The notes beneath the pieces were generated by a model, which saw only the letters and a list, made by a program, of their open reading frames with translations, was not told the origin of the DNA and did not search any database. Below, in pieces: positions 11,664 to 17,094 of a stretch of DNA of 21,663 nucleotides (within the stretch, counting starts at the first letter, position 1; every line of letters begins with the position of its first letter). Made by a program: the position numbers and the translations under genes. This DNA is from Candidatus Latescibacterota bacterium (GTDB taxonomy: Bacteria; Latescibacterota; UBA2968): assembly GCA_038279365.1 (NCBI GenBank), contig JAYODI010000094.1:1-21663 (forward strand). Reading direction: 5' to 3'.

Positions 11664-11739
11664 TTTGGAGATATAGATTTGAGTGGCCAGGCTGTTTATG
11701 GTTATTGAAGTCTTTTCATATGTGGGTATTGATATTGAG

Positions 11740-12957
11740 ATGGATATAGCAATTATAGGTGGGGGGGCGGCGGGTTTTTTTTCGGCCATTGCGGCAAAGG
11801 AAAATTACCCAGATGCACAGGTGGTGATTTTTGAAAAGTCAAACAAACTCTTGGTGAAAGTCAAGGTGTCTGGTGGTGGGCGATGTAATGTGACCAATGG
11901 GTGCACCTCTCTCAAAGAACTGTCGGAGGCATATCCCAGAGGTGGGAAACAGTTAAAAAAGGCATTTCGCATTTTTAACACCCAACATGCTCGGCAATGG
12001 TTTGAAGCGCGTGGGGTGCCTTTGTATGTGCAAGATGATCAGCGCGTTTTTCCTGTATCGCAAAGTTCGCAAAGTGTGGTGGATTGCTTTTTGGGAGAAG
12101 CTAAAAGGTTGGGCATTGGTATTGAAGTAGAGATGGGGATCAAATCTGTTCGATCCATAGGTGATCGGTTGGCATTGGATTTTGTCGCAGAAGACTTAGA
12201 TACCCGTCTTTTTGATAAGGTAATTGTTGCTACGGGTGGATCTGCAAAAAGGGTGGGCTTTGAATGGCTTGAAAAGTTACATCATAAAATAGAAGACCCT
12301 GTGCCTTCTTTGTTTACGTTTAATATGCCTACAGAATCGGTAAAAGCATTAATGGGTGTTGCTGTGGAAAAAACATGGGTGAGTATTCAGGGCACAAAGT
12401 TGAAGTCGGAAGGACCTTTGTTGATTACACATTGGGGCATGAGTGGACCGGCTATTTTGAAATTGTCGGCATTTGGTGCACGTTTGTTAAGTGACATGGG
12501 ATATGAATTTAAGATTCAAGTGAATTGGGTACAGGTTCAAAACCAAGATGTGGTCATGGATGATTTGCAAGACATTGTTTATGCGTATGCGGGCAAGCGA
12601 TTGATCAACAGAAGGCCATATTCATTGCCCGAAAGGCTGTGGGGTTATTTGCTTGAGAAATGTGATTTGTCTGTTGATAAAAAATGGGGTGAACTTGGTA
12701 AGAGCGGGATGAACAAGCTGGTGAATGTGTTAACGCACGATGTTTACAGTGTGCAGGGCAAAACTACATTTAAAGAAGAGTTTGTGACTTGTGGAGGGGT
12801 GAGTTTGGAGAGCATTGATTTTAAGACGATGCAAAGTAAGGTGTGTAAAAATTTGTATTTTGCGGGCGAAGTGATGGATGTTGATGGCATTACGGGTGGA
12901 TATAACTTTCAGGCGGCTTGGACAACGGGGTTTATTGCAGGACAGTTGATGGGATGA
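11740..12957 (+). CDS. HI0933/BaiN (YhiN-like) family flavoprotein
   Basis: IIGGGAAG, KVSGGGRCNVTN, VATGG, THWGMSGP, VTCGGV and GEVMDVDGITGGYNFQAAW motifs. The start codon is uncertain. Confidence 0.93.
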   Translation: MDIAIIGGGAAGFFSAIAAKENYPDAQVVIFEKSNKLLVKVKVSGGGRCNVTNGCTSLKELSEAYPRGGKQLKKAFRIFNTQHARQWFEARGVPLYVQDDQRVFPVSQSSQSVVDCFLGEAKRLGIGIEVEMGIKSVRSIGDRLALDFVAEDLDTRLFDKVIVATGGSAKRVGFEWLEKLHHKIEDPVPSLFTFNMPTESVKALMGVAVEKTWVSIQGTKLKSEGPLLITHWGMSGPAILKLSAFGARLLSDMGYEFKIQVNWVQVQNQDVVMDDLQDIVYAYAGKRLINRRPYSLPERLWGYLLEKCDLSVDKKWGELGKSGMNKLVNVLTHDVYSVQGKTTFKEEFVTCGGVSLESIDFKTMQSKVCKNLYFAGEVMDVDGITGGYNFQAAWTTGFIAGQLMG

Positions 12958-12987
12958 TTTTTCAATCGAATTTGAGAAAGTGAGTGT

Positions 12988-13920
12988 GTGATGATACAAG
13001 ATGTGGTGCGCAATCAAGCAGGTATTCCTGTGCGTAGGTTGGGGAAGACCGAGTTGGAGGTTTCGGTGATTGGGGTGGGTGGGGGACATTTGGTGCGCCC
13101 ATATATTGATGAGCAGATGTCTGTAAAAATAATTCAGACGGCCATTGATGCTGGTGTGACGTTTATGGACAATGCTTGGGAGTATCACCAGGGTGAATCA
13201 GAACGCAGAATGGGGTTGGCTCTAAAAGGACGTCGTGACCAAGTGACGTTGATGACCAAGGTGTGTGGGCGCGACCGTGAAACGGCTGAAGTCCAATTGC
13301 ACGACAGTTTGCGGCGGTTGCAAACGGATGTGATTGATGTGTGGCAGTTTCACGAGATTAATTATGACAATGATCCTGAATGGATTTTTAGAGTAGATGG
13401 TGCACTTGAGGCGGCCTTAAAAGCACGTGAAGCGGGTAAGGTGCGTTTTATTGGTTTTACAGGCCACAAGAGCCCTCATATTTTGCAAAACATGCTGGCC
13501 AAAGATTTTGACTGGGATACGTGCCAGATGCCGGTGAATGTGGTGGATGCGCATTATCGTAGTTTTCAAAATGAAATTTTACCCATATTAAACAAACGAG
13601 ATATTGGCGTGATTGGCATGAAAAGTTTGGGTGGGCGTGGCCAATTGGTGACTGATTTGGGGTTGACGGCAGAACAATGTCGGGGATATGCGCTTTCTTT
13701 GCCGATCAGTACGCTGGTGTGCGGTGTGGAGTCGTTGGAAAATTTGCAACAGGATGTGGATGTGGCGCGCAATTTTGTGCCGATGTCTGAGGTTGAACAA
13801 CAGGAGTTGGTGGATCGTGTTTATGAAGAAGCCACAGACGGGCGCTATGAATGGTTTAAGAGCACTCAGTTTTTTGATTCACAATATCATCGCGATCAAC
13901 ACGGGTTTCCCGCGGCATAA
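12988..13920 (+). CDS. Aldo/keto reductase
   Basis: RRLGKT..VSVIG, DNAWEY, MTKV, SLRRLQTDVID..QFH, GKVRFIGFTGH and GMKSLG motifs. Confidence 0.92.
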   Translation: MMIQDVVRNQAGIPVRRLGKTELEVSVIGVGGGHLVRPYIDEQMSVKIIQTAIDAGVTFMDNAWEYHQGESERRMGLALKGRRDQVTLMTKVCGRDRETAEVQLHDSLRRLQTDVIDVWQFHEINYDNDPEWIFRVDGALEAALKAREAGKVRFIGFTGHKSPHILQNMLAKDFDWDTCQMPVNVVDAHYRSFQNEILPILNKRDIGVIGMKSLGGRGQLVTDLGLTAEQCRGYALSLPISTLVCGVESLENLQQDVDVARNFVPMSEVEQQELVDRVYEEATDGRYEWFKSTQFFDSQYHRDQHGFPAA

Positions 13921-15624: not shown

Positions 15625-15737
15625 GTTGGCTTTCTTGAGAAATTAGGATATACTATGGGGTAAATGTACGGATGAAGTGGTGTCTGACAAGGTTTGTGAC
15701 AGAGTGAAGCGCGATATTCTATAAAGGGGATCAACTT

Positions 15738-16403
15738 GTGAATCGTTTTTGGGGTGTGTGTTTGGTGTTGTTTTTAGGCGTGTCGAATGCTTTTGCAGAA
15801 GACGCAGAGCCAGATTCTGCGCAGGTGGCACCTCCTACGTTTTCGATGACGCCTACGTGAGTGGGCTGACCTGGTGAAGGTGCACCGCTCCGGGGGAGCG
15901 GGATTCAGACAAAGTGGACGTTTTCAGGACGGTTTGTGAATACAGCATTGGATCGGCCACGTTGGCGGTCAACGGCCAATTATCGGCTTCATCAAAGGCT
16001 TCAGGTCGGTGTTGAATATAACCCGCAGGCCAAAGAGATTGGGCCGTTGTTTTCTTTGTTTTTGTTTACAGAGACAGAAAAACGACCAGCGCTCTTTTTG
16101 GGCACCAGCTCAGATCGCATTGGTTCGCCTGCGGGCAAACAGTCTTATTTTGCAACGGCGAGCAAATATGTACCTGCTTTACATGCGTCATTTTATGCGA
16201 GCTTAAATTACTCGGAATGGGATGATGCGTTTAATGTGCCGTTTGGGATGACGTTGGAACTGGGCAAGGGGTTTTCGGTTCGTCCGATGTACGATGGTGA
16301 TCGGGGGCATTTGATGGTGAACTATTATGCTACCCAATATGGTGTGAGTTTGATGTATGTTTGGTTTGAAACGGCGGGTGTGTCCTTTTCTTTTGGATTT
16401 TAA
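15738..16403 (+). CDS. Putative exported selenoprotein with UxxU motif and beta-barrel-like C-terminal domain (221 aa with two TGA read-throughs)
   Basis: AAGGGGA SD then GTG 15738, in frame with track ORF 15936..16403. Signal peptide MNRFWGVCLVLFLGVSNAFA. In-frame TGA at 15858-15860 and 15867-15869 (T-U-V-G-U-P), a hairpin just downstream, and a C-terminal GVSFSFGF. Confidence 0.75.
15870..15908 (+). promoter_or_regulatory. Candidate bacterial SECIS element
   Basis: CCGCTCC-GGG-GGAGCGG stem-loop (15885-15901) with a G-rich apical loop; possible lower stem TGAA (15875-15878) / TTCA (15904-15907). The loop starts 23 nt after the second TGA and 32 nt after the first. Confidence 0.6.
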
Positions 16404-16416
16404 TTTGGAGAATAGC

Positions 16417-17094
16417 ATGAGATATATGGGTTTTTTATTGGTGATATTATTCGTGACTTCTGTGGTGGCACAAGAAAACAAGATACCTGAAAAAGCGTTG
16501 TGTTCTGTTTGCTCATTAAAAGGCGCAGGGCATGGGCCTGAAAAGGTTCGGGCCCATTCTGTGCATGAAGGTCAGGCGTATTATTTTTGTTCGGAAGGGT
16601 GTAAAAAAGAATTTGATGCGGATCCTGTGGCTTATTTGCCTCCCGTTTTTCCACGCCCAGCACCGGCATTTGCTGTTGAGACACTCACGGGTGAGAATGT
16701 GTCTTTAAAAGATTATGAAGGCAAACTGGTATTGGTAGACTTTTGGGCAACGTGGTGCAAACCTTGTATTGAGATGATGCCCAATTTGCAAAAGGTCTAT
16801 GATGCGTATTCGGATAAAGGATTGGTGGTTTTGGGCGTGTCGATTGATGAGCCAAAAGATCGGATCAAGAAAGTTGAGAAGTTTGTCGAAAAAGTGGGTG
16901 TGTCTTATCCCATTTTGGTGGATGCCAAACCGGTGCCTGCATGGCATATGTTTAAGGTGAAAGCGATACCCGCTCTGTTTTTGATTGATGGTGGTGGGCA
17001 AGTGGTGGCGCAGTGGACGGGGGAAATAGATCACAAAGAGATTGAAGCTGAGGTTGTGAGCCGAATAGGAATAAAAGCAAACAGCGCGCATTAA
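16417..17094 (+). CDS. Exported YHS-domain + TlpA-like thioredoxin fusion
   Basis: GGAG SD before ATG 16417; signal peptide (..SVVA/QE). CSVC...YYFCSEGCKKEFDADP..Y matches YHS; PAPAF, VDFWATWCKPC and AIP match TlpA/redoxin. Confidence 0.9.
   Translation: MRYMGFLLVILFVTSVVAQENKIPEKALCSVCSLKGAGHGPEKVRAHSVHEGQAYYFCSEGCKKEFDADPVAYLPPVFPRPAPAFAVETLTGENVSLKDYEGKLVLVDFWATWCKPCIEMMPNLQKVYDAYSDKGLVVLGVSIDEPKDRIKKVEKFVEKVGVSYPILVDAKPVPAWHMFKVKAIPALFLIDGGGQVVAQWTGEIDHKEIEAEVVSRIGIKANSAH

Follow-up and report, generated by a model that had tools for sequence, protein, structure and literature searches.

The window analysed here is a stretch of 21,663 nucleotides (nt), positions 1 to 21,663 of contig JAYODI010000094.1 (assembly GCA_038279365.1) of a Candidatus Latescibacterota bacterium, read on the forward strand. 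An earlier reading of these letters, the first-pass annotation, had proposed that a gene at 15738-16403 encodes an exported selenoprotein hidden from gene callers, in which two in-frame TGA codons spaced like a CxxC motif specify selenocysteine (Sec, U) near the N-terminus of a beta-barrel-like protein. The frame described there is present: from a GTG start to TAA the plus strand holds 221 codons plus the stop, broken solely by TGA at codons 41 and 44, and read-through yields V/M-NRFWGVCLVLFLGVSNAFA-EDAEPDSAQVAPPTFSMTPT-TGA-V-G-TGA-PGEGAPLRGSG..., with the C-terminus ...GVSFSFGF-TAA. The Shine-Dalgarno-like element claimed for the gene corresponds to a purine-rich AAGGGG about 7 nt 5' of GTG 15738, and an in-frame TTG at 15735 offers an alternative start. 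From residue 21 to residue 221, the mature protein is, as had been stated, free of cysteine, the only Cys of the read-through product being C8 within the signal peptide.

The open reading frame (ORF) predicted at this place, 15936..16403 (155 amino acids, aa), starts at the GTG codon of Val67. Because Val67 is nearly invariant (at least 90% in a 47-member family alignment) and sits at the end of the first barrel strand predicted by AlphaFold2 (residues 60-67), the start at 15936 is a gene-calling artefact. A frameshift was rejected as an explanation of the interrupted frame, the two other frames around 15738-15940 being closed. Genome-wide reassignment of TGA was likewise rejected: TGA is the ordinary stop of 4 of the 17 other large ORFs in the window, and the organism therefore does not read TGA as sense generally. 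The features of the locus are collected in Table 1.

Table 1. Coordinates of the features at the barrel-protein locus (columns: feature, positions in the window, strand, evidence or remark; CDS, coding sequence; SECIS, selenocysteine insertion sequence)
Full CDS of the selenoprotein candidate	15738..16403	+	Open frame; full-length conservation in 79 loci
Signal peptide, residues 1-20, ending AFA before EDA	15738..15797	+	By eye
N-terminal arm, residues 21-59	15798..15914	+	Variable acidic, Pro-rich linker, then conserved motif
First in-frame TGA, codon 41, proposed Sec	15858..15860	+	TGA in 79/79 loci; Cys in 11 distant relatives
Second in-frame TGA, codon 44, proposed Sec	15867..15869	+	TGA in 79/79 loci; Cys in the same 11
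Candidate SECIS hairpin	15885..15901	+	RNAalifold consensus and covariation
12-stranded beta-barrel domain, residues 60-221, ending in Phe	15915..16400	+	AlphaFold2, Foldseek
Weak sigma-70-like promoter candidate	15626..15654	+	9/12 matches
Partner gene: signal peptide, YHS domain and TlpA/ResA-like thioredoxin fold (WCKPC)	16417..17094	+	Pfam, NCBIfam

Over a wide range of bacteria the two TGA codons have been retained without exception. A DNA scan of 185,579 species genomes gave 155 confirmed relatives, and the locus counts reported here are drawn from the best 80 of these. Both TGAs occupy the same two codons in 79 of the 80 loci, that is, in every one that reaches the site, the remaining locus (L023) starting after it at a contig end; TGG, TGT or TGC is found at either codon in none of the 79. 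Agreement of this extent goes well beyond coincidence. The loci share the context PT-U-x-[G/A]-U-PGEGAPLRGSG, part of a longer arm motif, (R)P-x-[FS]-x-x-[AT]PT-U-x-[GA]-U-PGEGAPLRGSG, in which P39, U41, U44, P45, G46, E47, G48, G53 and G55 are invariant among 47 sequences. The bases after the second TGA are always CC (Pro), and throughout the P-G-E-G that begins there only third codon positions vary, positions one and two being invariant, which is the mark of a frame that is translated. Upstream, 78 of the 79 loci have a hydrophobic N-terminus resembling a signal peptide; for the other, L049, the start-codon heuristic chose a start that leaves no such N-terminus. The combination generally expected of a selenoprotein gene, a conserved in-frame UGA with coding conservation on both sides, is therefore found here, and the first-pass annotation, which had staked its proposal on conserved TGAs at codons 41 and 44 and on conservation upstream of 15936 together with a signal peptide, is borne out on both counts.

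The record titles of the 80 loci name about nine bacterial groups: Poribacteria (24), Latescibacterota (17), Eisenbacteria (11), Acidobacteriota/Thermoanaerobaculia (9), Gemmatimonadota (4), and one locus each from Calditrichia, Krumholzibacteriia, Multivoradales and 'Deferribacteres'. The closest (L001) belongs to a Latescibacterota metagenome-assembled genome (MAG), is 79-81% identical and has the same transporter upstream.

Downstream of the TGAs the RNA is predicted to form a hairpin, CCGCUCC-GGG-GGAGCGG, with 7 bp and an apical loop at 15892-15894, which emerged as the RNAalifold consensus of the 80-sequence alignment. It begins 15 nt 3' of the second TGA and 24 nt 3' of the first, and its apical loop begins 25 nt and 34 nt, respectively, from the U of these codons. 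The accepted distance from UGA to apical loop is 16-37 nt, and both codons fall within it. Of the 546 cells that 78 distinct rows provide, 98.5% are paired, and 42 cells carry changes on both sides of a pair, compared with 14.6 +/- 2.6 in shuffled alignments, none of 500 of which reached 42; when the 3' arm was slid by 1-3 columns, pairing dropped to 30-69%. At pair 36:48, formed by synonymous third positions of Pro and Ser codons, GC occurs 49 times, GU 13 and AU 11, and at pair 39:45, likewise synonymous (Leu-Gly), CG occurs 46 times and UA 27, so that the hairpin is kept by compensatory synonymous changes. In isolation it folds at -13.1 kcal/mol (z -2.93), and the minimum-energy structure of a fold anchored at the second UGA includes it (-17.2 kcal/mol, z -1.53). 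The loop begins with a G (alignment column 41) that never varies, in agreement with PMC13582414, where an apical loop beginning with G is cited as the bacterial SECIS consensus. A downstream stem-loop with G at the first or second apical-loop position, another general mark of bacterial selenoprotein genes, is thus present, conserved and covarying, in line with the rule, cited in the first-pass annotation, that UGA plus a downstream hairpin encodes Sec in bacteria. Two divergent loci, L068 (6118-6170) and L080 (6085-6137), have PVGG[AE]G in place of PLRGSG, and their hairpin, which has a GUG loop, is displaced by a few bases; L068 encodes PVGGAG and yet folds its GUG-loop hairpin at the same place.

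Relatives with cysteine at the two positions exist at greater distance. A profile of 47 full-length members, run against 1.84 billion representative proteins, found 232 relatives, of which 150 were listed and 16 fetched. Six of the 16 (P0146, P0148, P0162, P0209, P0144 and P0150) have PTCAGCAGEA- aligned to PT-U-x-G-U-PGEG; the others comprise one protein with Trp at both sites of the type called under genetic code 4 (P0217), one C-x-x-W protein (P0130) and eight barrel-only relatives that lack the motif. A further search from P0146 returned 26 proteins, 16 of them aligned, and all seven that reach the site have CAGC, the other nine starting just after it. In all, 11 distinct proteins carry CxxC at exactly the two Sec positions, P0155, P0170, P0275, P0280 and P0287 being added by the second search, and cysteine homologues of the kind that the first-pass annotation had suggested looking for are thereby supplied. 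Such Sec/Cys pairing, as read from these alignments, is a classical argument that a selenoprotein is genuine. The residues after the site are different in the Cys forms (AGEAR.. vs PGEGAPLRGSG), which fits an RNA constraint limited to the Sec forms. One to three YHS domains are fused N-terminally in 5 of the 11 Cys-type relatives. The Cys-type clade is labelled Fimbriimonadaceae/Armatimonadota where it is named at all, and some of its members (among P0272-P0278, P0281, P0285 and P0286) start past the CxxC site; these may be TGA-truncated Sec forms or merely fragments. The distant relative P0130 reads P-A-C-V-G-W-PGEG, with Cys at the first site and Trp at the second; it may represent a CxxU protein whose gene was called with code 4. 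A word-index search with the arm alone (residues 21-72) gave no matches and is uninformative.

In public protein sets the family is present almost entirely in truncated form. A search of 5.8 billion proteins gave 838 matches at E up to 0.001, and among the 120 listed, 117 are 130-166 aa long and align with just the C-terminal 59-75% of the read-through product; wherever these truncated homologues are named, the name is "hypothetical protein". The systematic truncation by gene callers that had been predicted is therefore what the databases contain. Three longer proteins (P0005, P0037 and P0121) run through the site with Trp at both positions, as does P0217 from the profile search. Homologues with Trp at these positions had been named beforehand as a finding that would speak against Sec; for the two of the four that can be traced to DNA, that objection falls away. 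P0121 is identical (201/201) to the table-4 translation of L054 and P0037 nearly so (229/233) to that of L064, and because both Trp codons of each read TGA in the genome records, at least these two proteins are code-4 gene calls made on short contigs.

The protein that carries the motif is a predicted outer-membrane barrel. An AlphaFold2 run on the 47-sequence alignment gave a model with a mean predicted local distance difference test score (pLDDT) of 82.4 and a predicted template modelling score (pTM) of 0.73, in which a signal helix (residues 3-21) is followed by a disordered linker (21-30, pLDDT 40), an arm of moderate confidence (31-59; pLDDT 62-78 for residues 31-60) and twelve long strands spanning residues 60-220; the terminal residue, F221, is kept in at least 90% of the 47 sequences. 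Foldseek comparison with the PDB matched mostly barrels of the outer membrane or of designed transmembrane type, among them FapF (E 2.7e-5), a designed 10-strand barrel, KdgM (target TM-score 0.60-0.62), NanC, OmpG, FadL and porins; the highest-ranked matches are all transmembrane barrels, and two weak ones further down are not plain porins. The model and its matches to solved outer-membrane barrels agree with the beta-barrel, non-thioredoxin fold of the first-pass annotation, and the features diagnostic of outer-membrane barrels, namely a signal peptide (by eye), an even number of closed strands and a C-terminal aromatic residue, are all present. Because the strand number, twelve, is even, both termini would be periplasmic, and we infer from the model that the UxxU arm lies in the periplasm or within the barrel lumen.

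Profile searches placed the barrel in no named family. No Pfam family matches the protein at E up to 0.1, the KdgM/NanC porin profile included, so that the likeness to those channels is structural only; no family of NCBIfam release 20.0 matches at E up to 0.1, including NF041115, NF041027 and NF049945; and no barrel-region family of either collection was found in 13 relatives. Neither Pfam nor NCBIfam gave a thioredoxin-type match in the barrel protein, which in this respect does not have the fold of selenoprotein L. In the ESM Atlas, the clusters matched by the Cys-type P0146 are unnamed, "hypothetical" or "putative outer membrane protein with beta-barrel domain".

A second gene begins 13 nt 3' of the barrel gene and encodes a protein with a YHS domain (Pfam E 7.3e-9) and an AhpC-TSA domain (4.2e-26). 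Its scores fall below the NCBIfam cut-offs for TlpA (64 bits vs 230) and ResA (110 vs 170), and because it lies under both of these curated thresholds it may represent a distinct subfamily dedicated to the barrel protein. The YHS part has four invariant cysteines (CxxC...CSxxC), and the thioredoxin part reads WCxPC in 47 of 47 motif matches and never contains Sec. The partner gene adjoins the barrel gene downstream in 49 of the 80 loci and is present somewhere in 51; the gaps between the two genes are mostly 1-31 nt or overlaps, with three longer ones (64, 91 and 236 nt), no terminator-like site was found between the two genes, and co-transcription is predicted from this arrangement. The longest ORF of the partner (16357-17094) starts at an ATG that still belongs to the 3' part of the barrel gene; to judge from orthologues and from the signal peptide, the true initiation codon is ATG 16417. 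All 24 Poribacteria copies are without the partner. Poribacteria copies (e.g. L026, 5992-6657, and L029-L031) instead follow a gene for a Gfo/Idh/MocA-like oxidoreductase and precede a sigma-70-like gene on the opposite strand. As far as gene content can tell, neighbourhood and fusions both tie the CxxC/UxxU barrel to YHS and to a putative periplasmic reductase.

Taken together, we consider it highly probable that 15738-16403 encodes an exported selenoprotein consisting of an N-terminal arm with two Sec residues and a 12-strand, putatively outer-membrane barrel. The signal peptide would direct export by the Sec (general secretory) pathway, and the barrel would be inserted into the outer membrane by the beta-barrel assembly machinery (BAM). 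Both UGAs would be recoded by the standard bacterial route, through SelB and Sec-tRNA(Sec), with one short SECIS within the PLRGSG coding sequence directing both. The resulting diselenol/diselenide would replace an ancestral CxxC, and the UxxU barrel would work with the co-transcribed periplasmic YHS and TlpA-like thiol:disulfide oxidoreductase.

Several observations weigh against this interpretation. The window contains no tRNA gene, and no tRNA-Sec was found in the approximately 0.8 Mb of sequence flanking the 80 loci, in which two tRNAs were detected. It is unusual that none of the 79 close relatives has Cys at either site, and identity between the window protein and the Cys forms is no more than 26-32%. 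The stem, at 7 bp with a 3-nt loop, is short and not that of a textbook SECIS; an Rfam scan of 15700-16100 gave only chance-level matches and no SECIS family; a 71-nt single-sequence fold (15855-15925) pairs the 5' arm elsewhere and has no stability beyond that of shuffles (z -0.59), the hairpin appearing solely in the alignment and in folds anchored at the second UGA; and the L080 hairpin is weak (z +0.46). Finally, the shuffle control for covariation is uncorrected for relatedness, although the slid controls, which do correct for it, support the hairpin.

Among other explanations, the one that survives best is that the UGAs are recoded with the help of the hairpin as Cys, by a tRNA of the tRNA(ReC)/SelC* type, alone or mixed with Sec and in some or all lineages. 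According to PMC13582414, tRNA(ReC)-like tRNAs occur in about 56% of genomes with UXXU-type hydrogenases, as against about 2.3% of other Sec-type genomes; moreover, distant relatives have CxxC at these positions, and P0130 has C-x-x-W, possibly C-x-x-TGA. If Cys were the residue inserted, TGT or TGC would be expected to interchange freely with TGA, yet neither occurs at either site in any of the 79 loci, and the regions scanned for tRNAs, the window and the locus flanks, contain no gene for such a tRNA. We regard Cys insertion as improbable.

Still less probable is that read-through does not take place: translation would stop at the first TGA to give a short secreted peptide, an internal start such as GTG 15936 would produce the barrel, and the conserved hairpin would serve translational coupling or attenuation. 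The lengths at which 117 of the 120 listed homologues have been called and the lack of Sec machinery in the window would both be accommodated by this arrangement. It fails to explain why the stretch between the TGAs and the internal starts (PGEGAPLRGSG...W.FS.R) is the most conserved part of the protein, with variation at third positions, or why the Cys-type relatives are continuous across the site; moreover, the called starts vary among homologues, giving 151 to 166 aa, and a product begun at GTG 15936 would be without strand 1 and any signal peptide.

Reading of the UGAs as Trp, by a near-cognate or suppressor tRNA or under a TGA=Trp code, would give W-x-x-W, the very residues predicted in P0005, P0037, P0121 and P0217. 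We hold this to be very unlikely, for in the two traceable cases, P0121 and P0037, the genome records have TGA where the proteins have W, TGA ends 4 of 17 window genes, no locus among the 79 has TGG at either site, and relatives have Cys rather than Trp. That the gene is a pseudogene, or that its stops are sequencing or assembly errors as two stops within 12 nt of one gene might suggest, has a negligible chance of being right, since the same TGAs recur in 79 independent assemblies, finished long-read chromosomes included, and purifying selection acts on both sides of them; the first-pass annotation had itself allowed for assembly errors, and this conservation rules them out.

What the protein does is a separate question, and the estimates that follow presuppose that it is real. 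We lean, a little beyond even chances, toward the handling of a soft metal at the outer membrane, Cu(I) or another thiophilic ion like it. In this scheme the UxxU arm would serve as the binding site, YHS would take part in metal exchange, and the selenols would depend on the thioredoxin domain to stay reduced. A pure redox relay, in which a diselenide is recycled by the TlpA-like protein, is our second and less likely reading, metal handling being favoured over it because of the YHS fusions. YHS domains are metal-associated, a connection that in this analysis is backed only by weak co-match names. TlpA-type periplasmic reductases service copper-site proteins such as ScoI and CoxB; the partner resembles them in its TlpA/ResA-like fold, WCxPC motif and signal peptide, and might plausibly reduce a dithiol or diselenol client. 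It differs from them in its additional four-Cys YHS domain and in that its client would be the barrel protein. The most specific picture that we would draw, and one advanced tentatively, as somewhat less likely than not, is of an obligate-Sec family, no Cys variant being present among 79 close members: a small outer-membrane channel whose periplasmic diselenol arm acts as a gate or relay for soft metals (Cu, Hg, Ag-type), served by a dedicated YHS-thioredoxin partner and decoded through one 7-bp SECIS.

Among described systems, a close parallel in decoding is provided by the UXXU hydrogenases. As set out in PMC13582414, in which double-UGA motifs with one SECIS were discussed in 2026, these enzymes have two UGAs three codons apart in place of a metal-binding CxxC, and a single SECIS downstream, with G first in its apical loop, has been proposed to act for both UGAs of the UXXU motif. 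Reading through UGA codons in MAGs brought these enzymes to light, among others in Poribacteria and Acidobacteriota, two groups in which Sec-type proteins are thus on record. The UXXU element of those hydrogenases belongs to a cytoplasmic, Ni-binding enzyme subunit with no sequence relation to the barrel protein, which bears a signal peptide and carries its motif on a flexible N-terminal arm. A UxxU motif able to form a diselenide is also found in selenoprotein L of aquatic eukaryotes. That protein shares the motif with ours and differs in its thioredoxin/Prx-like fold and its eukaryotic 3'-UTR (untranslated region) SECIS, the hairpin of the barrel gene lying within the coding sequence.

Bacterial selenoproteins with related features are listed in a table of PMC13188914 under the entries Prx-like, NF041115, FmdB, NF041027 and NF049945. 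The UxxU proteins of that table resemble the barrel protein in that a double Sec replaces a redox or metal-binding CxxC, and they depart from it in fold and compartment, no Pfam or NCBIfam model matching the barrel protein. GSU2204/MtrB-PioB (NF041027) and the TonB-dependent receptor FCYXU (NF049945), from the same table, place Sec in an outer-membrane beta-barrel, although these are far larger barrels with one Sec each and their models do not match. KdgM/NanC and FapF (PDB 4fqe, 4pr7, 2wjq and 5o68) are the best structural matches (Foldseek E 2.7e-5 to 1e-2), with comparable strand number and size, but share only 7-14% sequence identity and lack a CxxC/UxxU arm. UxxU selenoproteins and outer-membrane barrel selenoproteins are each already known, and it is this barrel family that matches no curated model. 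As far as domain labels tell, the family is not in the table of PMC13188914, and no description of it was found in the literature searched, although it may have been listed before. It thus appears to be an undescribed selenoprotein family distributed across many uncultured bacterial phyla, in keeping with the opinion of the first-pass annotation that no described family was recognisable.

The wider surroundings of the gene are unremarkable with respect to selenium. The promoter candidate of Table 1 lies in the divergent intergenic region between an MFS/GPH transporter gene on the minus strand and the barrel gene, where the number of sigma-70-like sites (2, vs 2.5 +/- 1.6 in shuffles) is not above chance. 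Neighbouring genes of the window include, by eye, a sulfatase, an FG-GAP-repeat-like protein and enolase-superfamily and Gfo/Idh/MocA-type enzymes, and, by Pfam and NCBIfam, a GPH symporter and an SGNH hydrolase; none is related to selenium metabolism, and together they suggest a polysaccharide-degrading marine heterotroph. A scan of the window for other TGA-split genes gave no convincing case. In one place (11683-13920) a flavoprotein (HI0933-like) gene ends in TGA and an aldo/keto reductase gene follows 30 nt on in the same frame; the stretch 11677-13917 was considered as a TGA-split gene and rejected, these being two adjacent, ordinary-looking genes that share a frame.

For the bacteria concerned, the immediate consequence is that, for entire phyla (Latescibacterota, Poribacteria, Eisenbacteria and others), the public protein sets miss the signal peptide and first strand of this protein and, with them, its only candidate active site. 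The finding adds a selenoprotein family for which there is no curated model, and it implies the use of Sec in lineages where this has been little documented. Selenium is also connected in this way with the cell envelope and, by way of the partner with its YHS and TlpA-like parts, probably with the homeostasis of metals or redox state in marine and sponge-associated bacteria. The locus further shows in clean form a natural pair of UGAs, three codons apart, for which apparently one short SECIS suffices. If the more specific picture given above is true, the barrel and its partner would constitute the first device at the outer membrane of bacteria that traffics metal by means of selenium, and the paired codons would offer a natural test case for the reloading of SelB within three codons.

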